Shown here piece after piece: positions 30,453 through 58,905 of a DNA stretch of 64,000 bases; within the stretch, counting starts at the first letter, position 1; each line of letters begins with the position of its first letter. The translations under genes were made by a program, and so were the position numbers. This DNA comes from Candidatus Altiarchaeota archaeon (GTDB lineage: Archaea > Altiarchaeota > Altiarchaeia > IMC4 > SCGC-AAA252-I15): contig JAZDIN010000004.1 in the NCBI GenBank assembly GCA_043804895.1, forward strand, positions 8,887 to 72,886. Reading direction: 5' to 3'. The notes beneath the pieces are model-generated. The model was given only the letters and a program-made list of their open reading frames with translations, was not told the origin of the DNA and ran no database searches.

Positions 30453-30554
30453 CAACGACTGCCGGCTAAAGCCGGCAGTTTGATACGCCGGAAACTACCT
30501 AGTCGAGAGGACTCCCTGAGGGTGTCCCCTGAAGGGGACAGTTTCCGAGCGTAT
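30453..30554 (+). repeat. 102-nt structured element, copy Y (intergenic, directly abutting M2)
   Basis: caacgactgccggctaaagccggcagtttgatacgccggaaact...gtcccctgaaggggacagtttccgagcgtat. The first 45 nt or so and the last 25 nt or so are near-identical to copy Z. It is preceded by TAT and ends in TAT. Confidence 0.8.
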
Positions 30555-50363: not shown

Positions 50364-50732
50364 ATGTTCTACGGGAGGAATATACCAGCAGCGTTGATGA
50401 GAAGTGGGTTAGAGGATAGGCTGCTTAGGGTGTGCGAGGAGGAGGACTTGTCCTACCTGGCATTGTTCGGCTCCTATGCTAGGGGGAAGGCGAAACCAAG
50501 GAGCGATTTGGACATAGCGATAGAGTATGAGAAAGGCGCGGATAAGACACTCTTTGACTTGATTTCATTGGAGGAGAGGTTGCGGAGGCCTTTCAGGAGG
50601 AAAGTCGACCTTGGGATTCACGATACCATAAGCCCGCACGTGATAGATAACGTCAGGAAGGACATGAGGGTCATATATCAACGACTGCCGGCTAAAGCCG
50701 GCAGTTTGATACGCCGGAAACTGCCTAGTTGA
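50364..50732 (+). CDS. Minimal nucleotidyltransferase (MNT antitoxin); its C-terminus is extended by insertion of element Z
   Basis: LFGSYARGKAKPRSDLDIAIE matches the GS...D.D NTase motif. The last 17 aa, QRLPAKAGSLIRRKLPS, are encoded by the 102-nt element and recur in the spurious ORF 30438..30650. Confidence 0.75.
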   Translation: MFYGRNIPAALMRSGLEDRLLRVCEEEDLSYLALFGSYARGKAKPRSDLDIAIEYEKGADKTLFDLISLEERLRRPFRRKVDLGIHDTISPHVIDNVRKDMRVIYQRLPAKAGSLIRRKLPS

Positions 50733-50780
50733 GTGGAGTACATGCAACTGTCCCTTGGAAGGGACAGTTTCCGAGCGTAT
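50679..50780 (+). repeat. 102-nt structured element, copy Z (inserted at the MNT/HEPN junction)
   Basis: caacgactgccggctaaagccggcagtttgatacgccggaaact...gtcccttggaagggacagtttccgagcgtat. It is flanked by TAT (50676-50678) and ends in TAT (50778-50780). Removing it restores an overlapping gene pair. Confidence 0.85.
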
Positions 50781-51111
50781 GAGAAACGATAAGGCCTACA
50801 TCAAACACATATATGATACGATAATTGATTTGGAGGGGTTCACAAAGGACGCGACCCTAACGGATTTCCTTAAAGACACGGAGAAACAATACGCTGTGAT
50901 ACGGGCCTTTGAGGTCATAGGCGAGGCCTCCAAGAACATAAGCGCTGAATTCAAAAAGAAGCATCCTGGTGTGCCGTGGACGAAGATGTCTGCGATGAGA
51001 GATAATTTGATACACGGATACTTCGGAGTCAACCTTGAGTTGGTCTGGAGCACAGTGAAGGTGAACATACCAGAGATAAAGAACAGGATAAAAGCGCTGA
51101 AGGCGAGGTGA
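50779..51111 (+). CDS. HEPN-domain protein (DUF86 type), toxin partner of the MNT
   Basis: MRNDKAYIKHIYDTI... with the R(x)4-6H motif RDNLIHGY. The track ORF starts 24 nt upstream, inside the element. Confidence 0.75.
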   Translation: MRNDKAYIKHIYDTIIDLEGFTKDATLTDFLKDTEKQYAVIRAFEVIGEASKNISAEFKKKHPGVPWTKMSAMRDNLIHGYFGVNLELVWSTVKVNIPEIKNRIKALKAR

Positions 51112-52818: not shown

Positions 52819-53787
52819 GTGATGATTGCAGTTTCTGGTTTGGGCAGGCTCAGGGTGATACAGTATTTCACCATGTCGTTGGTCTTCGGCGTCATAGCTG
52901 GCATACTCGCCCTAGTCCTTTGGTACAGCGGAGCTAGCGGCCTTGGGGGCCTCACGTTCGCGATAGTGCTGTCGTTCATCATGCTTTTCGTTCAGTGGCT
53001 AATCGGCCCCTGGCTTATCAAGATGATGACGAAGATGAAAGAGGTTAAGCCTGAGGAGGCTCCTGAGTTGCATGAGATTGTGGGTAGACTCGCCAAACAG
53101 GCTGGGGTACCGAAGCCGACCCTGTACGCCGTCAACGACCCGACCCCAAACGCGTTCGCATTCGGTAGGACGCAGAAGTCAGCAGGAATAGCAGTGCACA
53201 CCGGCCTCATGAGCATCCTCAACAAGGATGAAGTTGAGGGAGTATTAGCCCATGAGATAGGGCATATCAAACACCGCGACGTCCTCGTTATGACGATGGC
53301 GAGCGTCCTGCCCATAATGCTATACTTTATCGTAATAGTTATGGGGTCTGGGAGGGATAGGGACCGCGGAATCGGCGGCTCGCTCTTCGTATTCCTCGGC
53401 GCGCAGTTCGCAAGCTTCCTAGGCCAGCTTCTGGTGATGTGGCTTTCAAGGCAGAGGGAATACTACGCTGACGCGTACAGCGCCTACGCGACAGGGAAGC
53501 CGACCGCTCTCATGAGCAGCTTAGCCAAGATTACTTACACAATGCCAGCTAACGTGGAAAAGAATCCTGCGATGTCAGCCTTCTACATCAGCGACCCGAA
53601 ACCTGAGGAGAAGAAAGGCATGGCAGAGATAATCAACGCCATAGGCCAGGGGAACGAGCGGATGCTCGTGCAGAGTATTGAGAAGGAGAAGAAACACGGA
53701 TTCATGGAAGTCTTCATGACCCACCCGATGACAGCGAAGAGACTAGACGCGCTCATGAAAATACGAAAGGATATGGCAGTGTCCTAG
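52819..53787 (+). CDS. htpX: Protease HtpX homolog (M48 zinc metallopeptidase)
   Basis: HEIGHIKHRD (HExxH), QREYYADAY, and 4 TM segments. The ATG at 52822 is an alternative start. Confidence 0.85.
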   Translation: MMIAVSGLGRLRVIQYFTMSLVFGVIAGILALVLWYSGASGLGGLTFAIVLSFIMLFVQWLIGPWLIKMMTKMKEVKPEEAPELHEIVGRLAKQAGVPKPTLYAVNDPTPNAFAFGRTQKSAGIAVHTGLMSILNKDEVEGVLAHEIGHIKHRDVLVMTMASVLPIMLYFIVIVMGSGRDRDRGIGGSLFVFLGAQFASFLGQLLVMWLSRQREYYADAYSAYATGKPTALMSSLAKITYTMPANVEKNPAMSAFYISDPKPEEKKGMAEIINAIGQGNERMLVQSIEKEKKHGFMEVFMTHPMTAKRLDALMKIRKDMAVS

Positions 53788-55085
53788 TATCTGACCAACT
53801 CCTGATACATCGCCATATACCTTTCCGCCAGCTTTTGAGGGGAGTATTCAGAAATGACAAGCTGCCTACCGTTCTCGCCAAGACGACGTGACAACTCAGG
53901 GTCGCCAAGGAGCCTCAACATGCCCTCAGATAGTCCACTTACGTCACCTTTTTCAACTAGGATTCCTGTCTCAAGGTGCCTTACTATTTCAGGTATGCCA
54001 CCAGTCGCGTACGCGACCACAGCCTTCTTCATGGCAAGAGACTCCAATCCAACCAAACCAAGGGCCTCGCTGTATGATGGGAAGACCACATGGTCGGATG
54101 CTGCGTACATATTCCTGAGGCGTTTTTTATCTGCTGTGGGCAAAACCAGGACAATATCATCCAGCTTGTTCTGGTGTATGAAGTCAATCAGCTCTTCATA
54201 GTATTGTGTGCCGTGATCTGGTCCGACAATCACCGCCTTGAATGTGCCCCCGAATTTTTCCCTCAGAGATATGCACGCCTTGACGAAATCCAACTGCCCC
54301 TTAGGTCTGACTATCCTCGACGGATACAGTATTATCTTCTCATCCTTGACGCCTATCTCCCCCTTGAAGGATAGAGCATCCACGCCGGGCGCGTCCGGGT
54401 CGAAGAATGTGGAGTCGCACATGCTACCAATAACGACTGTATCTGAGCCTAATAGTCTGGCTGAGGGTATACTAACTCCCGTCTTACGGTCTGCAAGCTT
54501 TAGGATGGCCGAGGTTAATATTTTAGTCGCGAAAGCCATGAGACTTCTGCCAGTATATGGCGGAGTCTCAGCGTGAGAAGTGACCACGAGGGGAACGTGC
54601 TTTAGCAATGCAGGGATACAGGACGCGCTGATTGTCGGATTCACTACTGAATGGAGATTCACGACATCGATTTCCTCCTCTCTGAGCACGTCGTTTATCC
54701 GTCTGCTTAATATAACAGTCCTTCGAATACGGTTGGAAAAATCCCTATCAGTCATGTAAACTGGATGCAATGTAAGAGAGCTCCCCCCAAGAGATTCAGT
54801 CCTCCCTTCCGAGGTCGGGTCATTAGTCCTGTAGACTAAGTGTATGTTGACGCTGTTGTCCTTTAACAAAGCCGCGTTGAGGCCTTTAAGATAGGTTTCT
54901 GTACCGCCGACTCTTTCAAATGACGCCACAACCTCGAGTATGTTCATGTGCAGTTTCTGCTTGTGGCCCATGAGTTTCGCCCATTCCCTACCAGCCGGTT
55001 CGGGGAGTATCGTGAAGTCCAGCTGATCCCCATCCTTTGGTATCTGGACCGGCACATCCAACCGCTTATGGGCCATAACAGTCAA
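53784..55085 (-). CDS. Glycosyltransferase family 4 (GT-B)
   Basis: 433 aa. The C-terminal E(x)7E region reads FPSYSEALGLVGLESLAMKKAVVAYATGGIPE. Confidence 0.8.
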   Translation of the reverse strand: MTVMAHKRLDVPVQIPKDGDQLDFTILPEPAGREWAKLMGHKQKLHMNILEVVASFERVGGTETYLKGLNAALLKDNSVNIHLVYRTNDPTSEGRTESLGGSSLTLHPVYMTDRDFSNRIRRTVILSRRINDVLREEEIDVVNLHSVVNPTISASCIPALLKHVPLVVTSHAETPPYTGRSLMAFATKILTSAILKLADRKTGVSIPSARLLGSDTVVIGSMCDSTFFDPDAPGVDALSFKGEIGVKDEKIILYPSRIVRPKGQLDFVKACISLREKFGGTFKAVIVGPDHGTQYYEELIDFIHQNKLDDIVLVLPTADKKRLRNMYAASDHVVFPSYSEALGLVGLESLAMKKAVVAYATGGIPEIVRHLETGILVEKGDVSGLSEGMLRLLGDPELSRRLGENGRQLVISEYSPQKLAERYMAMYQELVRY

Positions 55086-55233
55086 TTATTGGGAATTGTA
55101 AGGAGAAATATGAGGATACATCCATGGTTTTGAAGATCACTAGGAGGAGTCATGAATAGCTTAAAACAAGTTATGTGACTTTCTCATTAGGATAGGAAGG
55201 GAGATGGCAGCATCCTGAGAATATCTTATTTTT

Positions 55234-55261
55234 ATAGTTATATTTAATAGTTATAGTTATG
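55234..55261 (+). promoter_or_regulatory. Three copies of ATAGTTAT directly upstream of, and overlapping, the vapB start; operator-like
   Basis: tttttATAGTTATAtttaATAGTTATAGTTATGg, with copies at 55234, 55247 and 55253. Confidence 0.4.
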
Positions 55262-55459
55262 GCAACTAGTGTAATGGTTAACGAGAGCACCCTCCAAATG
55301 CTTAGGGAATTGAAGGCTAGATTCCATGCCAAAAGCTATGATGAAACGCTCATGAAACTGGTGATGGAAACGACTAATGTCCCGGACTCAAAGTTCGGCA
55401 CGCACCCAAAGTTAAGGCCTTTCACGAAAGAGGACCGGAGCGTATTCCATGAGCTCTAG
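55259..55459 (+). CDS. vapB: VapB-type antitoxin
   Basis: 66 aa, overlapping the downstream PIN gene by 11 nt. Confidence 0.6.
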   Translation: MATSVMVNESTLQMLRELKARFHAKSYDETLMKLVMETTNVPDSKFGTHPKLRPFTKEDRSVFHEL

Positions 55460-55838
55460 ATACGTCATAGACTCATACGCCTGGATAGAGTACTTCAGGG
55501 GAAGCAAGGCCGGAGGGGCATCAAGGGAATACATCGAAAGCGGAGGCGCTATGACACCCACAATCGTGTTGGCGGAACTGTCAGACAAATACCGCAGGGA
55601 AAAAATAGACTCCTTAGATGAAGACCTGTTTTTCATAAAATCCAAGTCGCAGATACTCTCCTTAGATGAGGAAACAGCGATACTGGCCGGAGGACTGAAC
55701 AGTTCAATGAAGAAGGAAGTCAACGGCTGGGGCATGGCCGACTCGATAATCCTGGCCACGACCAGAAAACACAAAGCCAAAGTAGTGACCGGAGACGAAC
55801 ACTTCAGAAAACAGACGGAAGCCGTCATGATAGAGTAG
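55449..55838 (+). CDS. vapC: PIN-domain ribonuclease toxin VapC
   Basis: VIDSYAWIEY (first acidic residue), ...AELSDKY..., DSIILATTRKHKAKVVTGDEHF (third and fourth acidic residues). Confidence 0.8.
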   Translation: MSSRYVIDSYAWIEYFRGSKAGGASREYIESGGAMTPTIVLAELSDKYRREKIDSLDEDLFFIKSKSQILSLDEETAILAGGLNSSMKKEVNGWGMADSIILATTRKHKAKVVTGDEHFRKQTEAVMIE

Positions 55839-55850
55839 GAGGATACGCTC

Positions 55851-56160
55851 TACCTGTCTCGGCCGCGCCCCTCGGGGAGGGGGTCAGGAAGATGTGGCCG
55901 AGACAATGGTCTCGGACACACGCCAGAGAGGCAAGGCCAGTTAGAGGCATTTATACAGGGTAATGCATTAGTGCCGTCGAAGACGGCACAATCCGTTTCG
56001 GGAGGGTCAGGAAGAACTTGAAACTGGGGATGTGGCCTAGCGCTTTGCGCTAGGACATCAGACAGGAGCGATAATATCGCTCCTGCTGAGGGCGGTAGCC
56101 CTCCGCGGTTAAGGTGTGAGGGGGGGTTCGTGCGTTTTAACATATTTGTCCGCCCCACCG
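55851..56160. ncRNA. Candidate structured non-coding RNA(s), class unassigned (SRP RNA, RNase P RNA or novel); strand undetermined
   Basis: About 300 nt, GC-rich, between vapC and lhr. At least 7 local hairpins: ccgagac/gtctcgg, gcatt/aatgc, gtgccgtc/gacggcac, cctagcg/cgctagg, caggagcgat/atcgctcctg, gaggg/ccctc and cccctc/gagggg. A tandem internal motif occurs. The only ORF (55850..56158, minus) has a low-complexity P/G/R/L-rich translation. Confidence 0.35.
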
Positions 56161-56310
56161 GTGTTCCCTCATCGAGTGACTCGGGCTGCCGGTCGCCAGA
56201 CTTGTTTAGTCATTGTTGACGGCAGAACCATCACCCCTCAAATAGTTATGTGTTTTACCCTATTTTAATTTGTCGGTTTACTTGGGGTAACTGAGCGAGC
56301 GGGTGTTTAT

Positions 56311-58905
56311 TTGCTTGGAGTTTCCTATTTTGACGTTATGGTTGAGGTGCAGGGAGAGCCGTATGCTCGTGAGGATATTCTGAGGGAGTTGCATCCTTTG
56401 GTGAGGGAGTGGTTCAAGAGGAAGCATGGGGAGTTCTCGCTGCCGCAGCTTTATGCGATCCCTAACATCATGCATGGGAGGAGCACTCTGGTGTCGGCGC
56501 CGACTGGTAGTGGGAAGACGTTAACTGCTTTCATGAGCGTGTTGAACAAGCTGGTGGAGTTTTCGCTTATCGGTGATTTGGAGGAGAGAGTATACTGCGT
56601 CTATGTGTCGCCTTTGAAGGCTTTGAACAACGACATACGGAGGAACTTGGAGGAGCCGCTTCGGGAGTTGAATGAGTTGCACGGCAGCGACTTGGGCATT
56701 AGGGTGATGGTGAGAACTGGTGACACGCCGACTAGCCAGAGGGCTGCGATGTTGAAGAAGCCGCCGCACATACTCATTACCACCCCTGAGAGTCTGGCGT
56801 TGATTCTGTCCTCCCCGAAGTTCAGCCTGAAGCTTCAGGGTTTGAAGTGGCTTATAGTTGATGAGGTTCATGCGTTGGCTGAGAACAAGAGGGGGGTTCA
56901 ACTGAGTCTTACCATGGAGCGGCTTCAGAATCTGGCTGGGAGGTTCACGCGCATCGGTTTGAGCGCGACCATACACCCCCTGGAGAGGGTGGCCGAGTTT
57001 GTGGTCGGTTGTGAGGGGGGTAAGGTGAGGGATTGTAGGGTCGTTGACGTGAGGTACATGAAGGGTTTGGACATTAAGGTGTTGTGCCCGGTTAGGAATC
57101 TTGTTTCCGCGTCGCAGGATGAGGCTCACCACGCGTTGTATTCGCTTTTGGATAGTCTGATTCAGGAGCATAAGACGACGCTTGTTTTCACGAACACACG
57201 CGCTGCGACTGAGAGGGTGATAAACCATTTGAAGACGAAGTATCCTGGCAGGTATATGGGTGATATTGGGGCGCACCACAGTTCGTTGAGCGCTGAGCAC
57301 AGGCTTGACGTTGAGGAGAGGTTGAAGAGGGGGGAGTTGAAGGTTGTGGTGTCGTCGACTAGCCTTGAGCTTGGGATAGACATCGGTTACATCGATTTGG
57401 TGGTCCTGCTCGGTTCGCCGAAGAGCGTGGCGAGGGCGCTGCAGAGGATTGGGCGCTCGGGGCATAAGCTGCATGACAAGGCTAAGGGGAGGATTGTCGT
57501 GATGGACAGGGACGACCTTGTCGAGTGTTCGGTGCTTTTGAAGAACGCTGTTGAGGGGAAGATTGATGAGATACACATACCCGAGAACTGCCTTGACGTC
57601 CTGGCTCAGGAGCTTTATGCGACAGCGATAGCGAACGTCGAGAATATTGATAACGTTTATGAGATGGTGAGGAGGAGCTTCTGTTTCAGGAGCCTCAAGA
57701 GGGAGGAGTTCGACTCGGTACTGCATTATCTTTCCGGAGAGTACGTCACCCTTGAGGAGAGGAACGTGTATGCGAAGATTTGGGTAGATGAGGGAAGGAT
57801 GCTGATGGGGAAGAGGGGGAGGATGGCTCTGCCGATTTATGCGATGAACCAGGGCACGATACCTGAGGAGTCGTACGTCACAGTGAAGGTCGGCGACATC
57901 CCGGTCGGGAAATTGGATGAGGGGTTCGTGGAGAGGCTGAAGAGGGGGGACATATTCACGCTCGGTGGGAACCTCTACAGGTTCAACTTCTGCAGGGGGA
58001 TGGTGTGCCAGGTCGCTCCAGACAGCGGGCCGCCGACTGTGCCTTCGTGGTCGAGCGAGTCGCTGCCTTTAAGCTACGGGCTCGCTCTGGAGATTCAGAG
58101 GTTCAGGCGGCTTATGGAGGAGAGGATGGGCAAGCCGAAAGATGAGGTGATGTCGTGGCTTAAGTCTTACCTCTATGCCGACGACAACGCTGTCGGGAGC
58201 ATATACGATTATTTCAGGGAGCAGTACAGGTATTCCCTCATACCTCATGATGGGAGGATTCTCATAGAGTATAACCAGGCGTTCAAGAAGAGGTATATAA
58301 TATTCCACACGCTCTACGGCAGGAGGGTGAACGATGCCCTCTCCAGGGCGATAGCTTATGTTATTTCGAAGAAGGAGCGCAAGAACGTCATGATAGGCTT
58401 ATCAGACAACGGATTCTACCTGAGCATCCAGGGGAAGGTGCAGGCTTATAATGCGTTCAAGAGCCTGAAGAGCGGGGATTTGAGGGGAGTTCTCGTCGAG
58501 GCCGTAGACAAGACGGACGTCCTGTCCAGGAGGTTCCGCCACTGCGCTGTGAGGAGCATGATGATGCTTAGGAATTATAAGGGGTTGAGGAAGTCCGTGG
58601 GGAGGCAGCAGATGGGGGGGAAGATTCTCCTCAGCTTCGTTAAGAAGCTAGACCAGAAGTTCCCGATACTTGAGGAGGCGAGGAGGGAGGTCCTCGAGGA
58701 CCTCATGGACGAGGAGAACGCCAGGGGCGTGCTGTCAGGGATTGAGGAGGGGAGGATTGGGGTCGTGGAGGTCAATACCGACATACCGACACCGTTTGCC
58801 ATGGACCTCATAGGCCGCGGATACATGGACGTTCTGCGGGCAGAGGAGAGGCATGAGTTCATAAGGAGGATGCACGAGGCATTGCTTGAGAGGATTAGGG
58901 AATGA
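56311..58905 (+). CDS. lhr: Lhr-type ATP-dependent DEAD/DEAH-box helicase (Lhr-core)
   Basis: SAPTGSGKT (Walker A), IVDEVHAL (DEVH), SATI, VFTNTR, HHSSLS, and QRIGRSGH (motif VI). 864 aa with the Lhr WH/domain-4 length. An alternative start is at 56338. Confidence 0.85.
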   Translation: MLGVSYFDVMVEVQGEPYAREDILRELHPLVREWFKRKHGEFSLPQLYAIPNIMHGRSTLVSAPTGSGKTLTAFMSVLNKLVEFSLIGDLEERVYCVYVSPLKALNNDIRRNLEEPLRELNELHGSDLGIRVMVRTGDTPTSQRAAMLKKPPHILITTPESLALILSSPKFSLKLQGLKWLIVDEVHALAENKRGVQLSLTMERLQNLAGRFTRIGLSATIHPLERVAEFVVGCEGGKVRDCRVVDVRYMKGLDIKVLCPVRNLVSASQDEAHHALYSLLDSLIQEHKTTLVFTNTRAATERVINHLKTKYPGRYMGDIGAHHSSLSAEHRLDVEERLKRGELKVVVSSTSLELGIDIGYIDLVVLLGSPKSVARALQRIGRSGHKLHDKAKGRIVVMDRDDLVECSVLLKNAVEGKIDEIHIPENCLDVLAQELYATAIANVENIDNVYEMVRRSFCFRSLKREEFDSVLHYLSGEYVTLEERNVYAKIWVDEGRMLMGKRGRMALPIYAMNQGTIPEESYVTVKVGDIPVGKLDEGFVERLKRGDIFTLGGNLYRFNFCRGMVCQVAPDSGPPTVPSWSSESLPLSYGLALEIQRFRRLMEERMGKPKDEVMSWLKSYLYADDNAVGSIYDYFREQYRYSLIPHDGRILIEYNQAFKKRYIIFHTLYGRRVNDALSRAIAYVISKKERKNVMIGLSDNGFYLSIQGKVQAYNAFKSLKSGDLRGVLVEAVDKTDVLSRRFRHCAVRSMMMLRNYKGLRKSVGRQQMGGKILLSFVKKLDQKFPILEEARREVLEDLMDEENARGVLSGIEEGRIGVVEVNTDIPTPFAMDLIGRGYMDVLRAEERHEFIRRMHEALLERIRE

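Follow-up and report, generated by a model that had tools for sequence, protein, structure and literature searches.

The closest described counterparts of the repeats considered here are the bacterial REP and BIME sequences and the REPINs, which are tied to RAYT (TnpA-REP), a transposase of the HUH-Y1 type. In these palindromic, extragenic hairpins of 25-60 nt the foot sequence is conserved, and the stems are variable and covary. They form mosaics with other short modules and reach tens of copies per genome, and they show neither terminal inverted repeats nor target duplication. PATEs, gene-less derivatives of IS200/IS605 elements from haloarchaea and cyanobacteria, consist of two subterminal hairpins and nothing else. 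They insert precisely and in one orientation without target duplication and show a burst-like, patchy spread among related genomes. In the Thermoproteales, related short structured sequences stand in introns of different tRNAs and beside tRNA genes; these transposed bulge-helix-bulge tRNA introns were reportedly described by Fujishima and colleagues in 2010. The present analysis concerns a hairpin-dense block at positions 55851-56160, between the genes vapC and lhr, of a 64,000-nt window (contig C4:8887-72886) from a 1.58-Mb Altiarchaeota metagenome-assembled genome (G000; 71 contigs, 88.7% complete). The block is likely to be a junction of two unrelated things: a mobile hairpin-repeat mosaic at 55851-56113 and the start of a conserved folded element at 56114-56242. 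The modules carried by the mosaic constitute a new family of the REP/BIME- or PATE-like kind, and the element is a new candidate small-RNA family. To our knowledge, Altiarchaeota have no cultured model, and essentially no non-coding RNAs have been described for them beyond the universal ones.

The repeat mosaic and its double-hairpin modules

The composite nature of the block is evident from its distribution. Orthologues of lhr were found in seven relatives, and their upstream regions were compared with the window by BLAST (query 55839-56340). No trace of 55839-56115 was detected in any of the seven. Five relatives, two of them from the same genus, keep 56116-56239 only. Within the window genome, in turn, 55851-56113 breaks down wholly into pieces that are repeated elsewhere. 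Judged from these comparisons, it is a species-specific mosaic of non-coding palindromic repeats dispersed in the genome. Its parts are as follows.

55854..55864, plus strand: additional 3′ arm of hairpin B standing by itself, CTGTCTCGGCC, the reverse complement of the module's GGCCGAGACAG
55868-55882: small hairpin CCCCTC-GGG-GAGGGG, overlapped by backbone segment copy 1
55874..55891, plus strand: backbone segment copy 1, GGGGAGGGGGTCAGGAAG; the same word stands at 56000-56014 and at C15:7704-7718
55892..55940, plus strand: double-hairpin module copy 1, ATGTGG(CCGAGAC aatg GTCTCGG)ACACAC, then a decayed second hairpin
55941..55999, plus strand: backbone segment TTAGAGGC..TAATGCATT-a-GTG(CCGTC gaa GACGG)CAC-AATCCGTTTC, with an 8-bp hairpin at 55971-55989
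56000..56029, plus strand: backbone segment copy 2, GGGAGGGTCAGGAAG-AA-CTTGAAACTGGGG, the empty form of the C15 site
56030..56089, plus strand: double-hairpin module copy 2, of a second subfamily, ATGTGG(CCTAGCGC ttt GCGCTAGG)ACAtcaga(CAGGAGCGAT aat ATCGCTCCTG)CTGA
56088..56114, plus strand: backbone tail, hairpin GAGGGC-ggta-GCCCTC followed by CGCGGTTAAGG, abutting the conserved element

The mosaic comprises 1.5 tandem copies of a backbone repeat of ~170 nt, the only other copy of which lies at C15:7620-7870, and each backbone copy bears one double-hairpin module. The backbone runs in the order TTAGAGGC .. TAATGCATT-hairpin .. GGGAGGGTCAGGAAG .. CTTGAAACTGGGG .. CCGCGGTTAAG and is colinear with the C15 copy. 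Its segment 55941-55999, colinear with C15:7621-7700, is also 86% identical to C33:5285-5328, and the tail word CCGCGGTT(T/A)AG recurs at C15:7857-7867. Since the stretches that separate and surround the modules are repeated as well, the internal tandem motif noted in the initial annotation corresponds to these 1.5 backbone copies with their modules. The two-unit layout described there is present, as GGG(A/G)GGGTCAGGAAG, 0 or 15 nt, ATGTGGCC, a 7-8-bp hairpin and GACA. Its coordinates had been shifted by 8-9 nt: unit 1 stands at 55882-55918 rather than 55891-55927, and unit 2 at 56004-56057 rather than 56012-56065. Likewise, the extra GTCTCGG (55855-55861) can indeed compete for CCGAGAC, as had been suggested for mutually exclusive helices, but the ggccgagaca segment involved lies at 55896-55905 and not at 55904-55913.

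Hairpin density, the feature for which the block was originally picked out, is real. The plus strand of 55840-56115 has a minimum free energy of -126.7 kcal/mol, against -98.1 +/- 5.0 for shuffled sequences (z -5.7), and the minus strand one of -120.7 kcal/mol (z -7.4). None of 200 shuffles folded equally well on either strand. The two strands fold equally because the hairpins are perfect DNA palindromes. The reported GC richness stands for 55800-55950 only, where the GC fraction is 0.60-0.65; further on it is 0.52-0.57, barely over the coding flanks, and the AT-rich promoter region of lhr has 0.40.

The module family was followed through the window genome with BLAST, nhmmer and a hairpin-aware scan. 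Its members have the layout (A)TGTGG-hairpin B (6-9 bp)-ACACAC-hairpin C (7-10 bp)-(N)GTG, are 51-60 nt long and amount to ~25 copies. The hairpin-aware scan returned 30 TGTGG-hairpin-ACA sites, compared with 12 in the reversed genome; ~23 have the full two-hairpin layout with covarying stems. The stems of hairpin B vary by compensatory changes (CCGAGAC/GTCTCGG, CTGAGAC/GTCTCAG, GCTAGCGC/GCGCTAGC, CGTAGCC/GGCTACG) while the frame remains constant, and hairpins B and C always have the same orientation. Module copy 1 of the mosaic is 94% identical over 54 nt to C15:7708-7761 and shares its core with ~14 other loci. Hairpin B of module copy 2 is ~90% identical to copies at C62:2079, C3:50515 and C7:32915. 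The suggestion that the block is a composite member of a repeat family thus holds for 55851-56113, but the family is that of the TGTGG/ACACAC double hairpins and not that of the 102-nt TAT-delimited element. What makes the minus-strand end (..gagcgtat) look like the terminus of the 102-nt element is the 9-mer GATACGCTC; this 9-mer has 19 occurrences in the genome, most of them within genes, and the likeness does not rise above chance.

Two sites show the modules as insertions. At C15, a 59-nt module stands as GGGTCAGGAGG-(ATGTGG..GTCGCGT)-CTTGGAACTGGGG, that is, between words that are found as GGGTCAGGAAG-AA-CTTGAAACTGGGG in unit 2 of the mosaic; in unit 1, the 94%-identical module directly follows GGGTCAGGAAG. 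At C7:32915-33000, a 51-nt module (TGTGGCCGAGCC..GCTCACGCGTG) splits hairpin B of a three-hairpin element in its 3′ arm; this element is uninterrupted at C62:2079-2140 and, on the minus strand, at C3:50515-50575. The junction of this nested insertion leaves one ambiguous T and shows no target duplication and no terminal inverted repeat. By these sequence comparisons, the modules are shown to be small non-autonomous mobile elements that insert precisely and in one orientation, without terminal inverted repeats or visible target duplication. A classical miniature inverted-repeat transposable element was considered and rejected: the module ends, TGTGG.. and ..CGTG, form no inverted repeat, and nothing is duplicated at the nested insertion. 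The three-hairpin elements at C62, C3 and C7 share a first hairpin and its flanks, TATCAACGAC-(CTGCCGGC taaa GCCGGCAG)-TTTGAT, with the 102-nt elements of the window (30453-30554 and 50676-50781). Because of this sharing, the repeat families of the window genome are best seen as mosaics drawn from a common pool of hairpin modules.

The frame TGTGG-N16-24-GACACAC occurs 15 times in the window genome, 14 times in G039 and 0-4 times in each of the other 59 Altiarchaeota genomes, with 0-2 occurrences in controls. G039 belongs to the same order and a different family. It carries an independent burst of 14 near-identical copies of TGTGGCAGAGGCTTCGCCTCTGACACAC on 14 contigs. The exact core pattern of the module had no match among 185,579 species genomes.

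Spread of the modules and their association with tRNA genes

The modules resemble REP/BIME sequences in being short dispersed extragenic hairpins, present in ~23-25 copies with covarying stems and a fixed TGTGG/ACACAC frame, and in forming mosaics with other short modules. Unlike them, they reside in an archaeal host, arrange their hairpins as a direct tandem and have TGTGG/ACACAC/GTG as their foot instead of GTAG or CGTC. With PATEs they share the two-hairpin build, the precise and oriented insertion and the patchy, burst-like occurrence in related genomes. They differ from PATEs in that no parental IS200/IS605 element with matching ends was found in the window genome or in the ~1.5 kb around the Y1_Tnp gene of G039, and in that no target tetranucleotide could be defined. 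Single-strand, hairpin-guided transposition of the IS200/IS605 or REP/BIME kind would be the most likely mechanism of their spread, with the mobilising enzyme supplied in trans. The modules point in either direction with respect to the genes beside them, and at C15 the copy is antisense between two genes, which argues for an element acting at the DNA level rather than for a cis-acting signal in mRNA.

Several observations weigh against such a mechanism. Of the 25 module copies, seven are located in a tRNA gene or no more than 150 nt from one, against an expected 0.18 (binomial P about 4e-10). Examples of the tRNA-associated sites are:

C48:4100
C48:12209
C33:5170
C4:79518 (beyond the window)
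C25:40233
C4:94200
C3:36580

One copy is located in the 134-nt intron of a tRNA-Thr(GGT) gene in the tRNA's own orientation, three directly follow tRNA 3′ ends and are likewise oriented as the tRNA, and one, oriented against its tRNA, falls in an intron of 256 nt predicted for a tRNA-Ser(CGA) gene. Such clustering is not known for IS200 or REP elements and leaves room for an RNA-level or integrase-linked route. Moreover, no Y1/HUH transposase (PF01797) was detected at E<=0.01 in the window genome, which is 88.7% complete and in which positive controls were detected, and no RAYT was detected either. An IS200-type Y1 transposase gene is present in G039 (L064:1441-1919, 68.7 bits), but no TGTGG..GACACA module hairpin was found within ~1.5 kb on either side of it; neither search thus points to a Y1 enzyme as the mobiliser. 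Finally, by their sequence the two hairpins of a module form a tandem in the same orientation and not the inverted REP pair of which REPINs consist.

Instead of an HUH-type DNA transposase, an RNA-level process or machinery linked to tRNAs may spread the modules. In the former case they would be intron-like elements of the bulge-helix-bulge type, excised and re-inserted by the splicing endonuclease and ligase together with reverse transcription; in the latter, passenger pieces of integrative elements that target tRNA genes. The tRNA clustering, the copies oriented as their tRNA and the lack of a detected Y1 transposase in the window genome all speak for a route of this kind. The likeness to the Thermoproteales introns suggests intron gain by a mobile sequence. 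On the other hand, and unlike those introns, most module copies are intergenic and occur in either orientation to flanking genes, even between convergent genes or, as at C15, antisense to them, and one has inserted into the hairpin of another module in an intergenic spacer. Nor was a reverse transcriptase seen, although no search was aimed at one. We therefore regard an RNA- or tRNA-linked route as unlikely, though it deserves to be kept in view. Hairpin-guided transposition of single-stranded DNA remains the preferred explanation. In either case, the affinity of the modules for tRNA genes and introns bears on the origin of archaeal tRNA introns, and the family offers a clean archaeal case of the REP/BIME or PATE kind, with one nested insertion and one filled-versus-empty site.

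Many tRNA genes of the window genome have unusually long introns of 44-256 nt as predicted by ARAGORN (Met 118; Thr 134 and 80; Ser 87 and 256; Leu 85). ARAGORN detected 26 tRNAs only, and non-canonical introns may hide some others.

The conserved element 56114-56242

The last ~45 nt of the block belong to a conserved element that extends well beyond it. The right boundary drawn at 56160 cuts through this element, and so the block does not stand as a single unit. The features concerned are:

56114..56242: conserved single-copy structured element of ~125 nt, an extended hairpin P1-P6; covariance-model match of 107-108 bits in the window genome
56118-56125 with 56232-56239: helix P1, GAGGGGGG paired with CACCCCTC
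56240-56250: AT-rich box 1, adjoining P1
56260-56270: TATA-like box 2, CTATTTTAATT, at a fixed distance from P1

Upstream of lhr, 56116-56239 was found by BLAST at 77% identity in G003, 74% in G006 and 73% in G001, and the stretch is also present in G005 and G007. The aligned sequences of six genomes fold as an unbranched succession of helices, P1-P6, closed by the helix GAGGGG(C)/(G)CCCCTC. Covariance models identified exactly one copy per genome in 13 of the 49 genomes of the order and in 17 of the 61 genomes of the phylum Altiarchaeota. Nearly all matches fall in the window's own family, with E values down to 2e-25; two weak ones belong to two other families of the order. A pattern scan of metagenomes gave 21 exact matches, of which only four were true homologues, and these four copies on metagenome contigs, with the 17 in genomes, bring the number of copies to 21.

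The fold is supported by covariation. Among 12 sequences, 92.8% of the cells are paired and 15 of the 32 pairs have changed on both sides; none of 500 shuffles reached any of these measures, and sliding the partner strand reduced pairing to 32-52%. With 17 sequences, the excess of pairing over shuffles holds for either strand. Searched against Rfam, the 12 orthologous loci gave no match at E<=1. No Pfam match was obtained for the open reading frames 55850-56158 (minus strand) and 56116-56268 (plus strand), and the indels in the alignment of the element are not multiples of three. For these two reasons the element is, as far as its sequence tells, not coding. Most copies lack an ACA tail after the closing helix. 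An identity as 5S rRNA was rejected, because covariation supports an unbranched rod and not a three-way junction.

We propose that the element may be the gene of a small structured RNA, the 5′ and 3′ ends of which would pair in P1. In architecture only, it is similar to rod-shaped small RNAs such as bacterial 6S RNA, Y RNAs and 4.5S SRP RNA (SRP, signal recognition particle): all share a single-copy extended hairpin, here of ~125 nt, with conserved internal loops and ends that pair in a terminal helix. Unlike these RNAs, the element has no sequence or covariance-model likeness to any Rfam family, lacks the SRP helix-8 motif and is largely confined to one family of Altiarchaeota. Nor does the likeness extend to any known binding of RNA polymerase, Ro or SRP54. 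With a covariance model and a defined range of genomes, the element is a well-supported new RNA-structure family for Altiarchaeota. It is the most interesting content of the locus, although it lies largely outside the block that first drew attention.

In the apical hairpin (~56164-56186), ~10 of the 17 copies keep TC..(G)ACTC on the plus strand, which corresponds to GAGTC..(A/G)TGA on the minus strand. If the minus strand were the RNA, this motif would be predicted to form tandem sheared G-A pairs beside a short stem, a possible protein-binding motif. A K-turn was considered for the conserved GA..UGA pair of the minus strand and rejected, since the 3-nt bulge is absent. Directly upstream of the element in G003 (L030, ~2215-2300), the place that the mosaic holds in the window genome is taken by about five tandem units of cagaagactg(g/a)aaa, a further sign that the left edge of the element tolerates insertions.

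The block could also be read as one RNA. A single novel structured small RNA of ~300 nt, with one transcript spanning the whole block between vapC and lhr, would agree with its very strong folding on both strands and with its position in a non-coding gap between two co-directional genes. However, 55851-56113 is missing from the equivalent spacer of the five relatives that keep the element and consists entirely of pieces dispersed in the genome. Its hairpins, as perfect palindromes, fold no differently on one strand than on the other, and the right-hand 45 nt belong to an element with a closing helix of its own, the partner strand of which lies outside the block. A novel small RNA with the limits as drawn is therefore very improbable. 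Still less can be said for a divergent SRP or RNase P RNA, for which the size and stem density of the block provide the only argument and which we consider practically excluded. Both RNAs are present in full length elsewhere in the genome: the archaeal SRP RNA at C31:9143-9417 (RF01857 model positions 1-317; 151.7 bits, cut-off 96.5), and the RNase P RNA at C58:9820-10111 (RF00373; 81.5 bits, E 3.5e-23). The absence of SRP and RNase P signatures from the block, already noted in the initial annotation, is borne out by the Rfam covariance models. Rfam 15 at gathering thresholds gave no match in the whole window, and at E<=10 nothing but noise in 55700-56450. Two of these low-scoring matches were dismissed, one to DUF805b (19.3 bits), which falls in the 3′ end of vapC, and one to CRISPR-DR16 (14 bits), which is merely hairpin B. 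The sole match to a C/D-box or H/ACA guide small RNA in the same interval, sR30 with 10.2 bits, lies inside vapC, and ARAGORN detected no tRNA or tmRNA in the whole window. The preferred reading remains that of a junction between mosaic and element, with most of 55851-56160 being recent selfish DNA. For annotation this means that GC-rich, hairpin-dense gaps in these genomes should not be taken as single RNAs.

The RNase P RNA at C58:9820-10111 scores just under the Rfam gathering cut-off of 84, and standard annotation would miss it.

Gene context, strand and setting of the element

The genes that flank the element vary. On its left side, htpX lies directly upstream in G004, G012 and G001, and the ancestral order appears, from these arrangements, to have been htpX-element-lhr. 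Downstream, lhr follows in seven of the first 13 genomes and on the metagenome contigs L070 and L075; a leuA-like gene takes this place in G004, L076 and L077, and a small unrelated gene does so in G012. In G008, G010, G019 and G027 the element has a convergent gene on its right, the end of which lies at +27..+58. Because its neighbours vary in this way and include convergent ones, the element is neither a fixed 5′ leader nor a fixed 3′ tail. Such varied flanks would be more in keeping with an independent unit than with a leader or trailer.

To the right of P1, the TATA-like octamer of box 2 starts +20..+25 after the CTC of P1 in all 17 genomes, and it is found at the same place in the four metagenome copies (21 of 21). 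The AT fraction of the copies is 0.91 at +26..+30 and 0.76-0.81 at +1..+10, against a background of about 0.55, while the left flank of the element is featureless. The two boxes may be promoter-like and perhaps bidirectional. Read leftward, they would represent a canonical archaeal promoter: transcription would start with a pyrimidine/G exactly at the first base of P1, where a pyrimidine-G step is indeed found, behind an AT-rich -10 region and a TATA box with its centre near -26. The SRP RNA gene of the window genome has the same two-box promoter layout. A leftward promoter would explain why the boxes are kept next to convergent genes, why box 2 is kept where the ATG of lhr follows only 4-12 nt further, and why a 265-nt mosaic could abut the left edge of the element harmlessly.

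Two points count against a small-RNA gene of this kind. For the copy of the window genome, folding exceeds that of shuffles by a modest margin only (z -2.1), and the evidence on the strand is conflicting. In the alignment, 53 G-U cells against 16 A-C cells favour the plus strand, as do helix P5, which needs G-U pairs in most genomes and in which one position alternates between G-U, G-C and A-U, and the A-rich polarity of box 2, which fits the tRNA promoters of the genome when read rightward. Promoter spacing and gene context favour the minus strand. Folding energies do not discriminate between the strands (consensus -25.6 versus -23.5 kcal/mol; mean of single sequences -49.7 versus -47.6), and BRE-like flanks (BRE, B recognition element), wobble counts, TATA polarity and folding energy give conflicting signals when taken together. 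A bidirectional promoter would reconcile part of this conflict. Transcription of the minus strand, for which the TATA box with its centre at -26 is the main argument, may be put at slightly less than an even chance, and that of the plus strand somewhat below it; what is left falls to a cis element without a discrete RNA gene.

A competing explanation is that the element takes part in the expression of lhr in cis, as a leader or riboswitch-like structure on the plus strand or in association with the promoter, the AT-rich boxes being the promoter of lhr. The position of lhr in seven of the first 13 genomes and on two metagenome contigs is in line with it, and the wobble pairs and the polarity of box 2 point to the same strand. 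In G005-G007, furthermore, the ATG of lhr stands at +31..+33, so that box 1 precedes it by exactly one promoter length and the mRNA would be leaderless. Yet the element and both boxes are kept where the right-hand neighbour is convergent, leuA-like or the small unrelated gene of G012, and in two other families (G023, G024) lhr is not preceded by such an element. Nor was a conserved plus-strand promoter found upstream of the element, where in the window genome the 265-nt mosaic adjoins it. A cis-acting role for lhr is accordingly a minority view to us, with a low probability. We favour an independent RNA gene, and its product would probably be a protein-binding scaffold rather than an lhr leader. 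In G005-G007, the TATA-like box ends ~22 nt before the ATG of lhr, again suggesting a leaderless mRNA.

A more far-reaching proposal joins the two halves of the locus. The element would be a new class of archaeal small RNA with its own, possibly bidirectional promoter, acting in trans, for example as a protein-sequestering RNA or ribonucleoprotein scaffold with a rod-and-bubble shape like that of 6S or Y RNAs, and the modules would be mobilised without a Y1/HUH enzyme and with a preference for tRNA genes. As a whole this is rather doubtful. If true, the modules would be a living example of how archaeal tRNA introns and the structured spacers that flank tRNA genes arise.

The setting of the block is given by the following genes:

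55259-55459: vapB, adjoining vapC
55449..55838, plus strand: vapC, PIN-domain toxin, the left flank (Pfam PIN, E 5.5e-16)
56338..58905, plus strand: lhr, Lhr-core helicase, the right flank (start from orthologue N-termini)

The two flanking genes are co-directional and 499 nt apart when the start of lhr is taken at the ATG 56338. The N-terminus MVEVQGEPYA begins at this codon, as opposed to the TTG 56311 of the mechanical list of open reading frames, and the N-termini of the orthologues share M-V/I-E-x-Q-K-E-P-Y.

Upstream of lhr, the gene content differs from genome to genome (htpX, glyA, a methyltransferase gene and others), and among the compared relatives only the window genome has a glycosyltransferase gene and vapBC there. 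The mosaic would have landed in this variable spacer together with vapBC and the glycosyltransferase gene, and it is probably without a function of its own. The interval from htpX to lhr is a variable spot when the window (52819-56340) is compared with L027, L041 and L045. In the relatives, the conserved element starts 18-170 nt after htpX. In the window genome, a minus-strand glycosyltransferase gene, vapBC and the repeat mosaic sit between htpX and the element.

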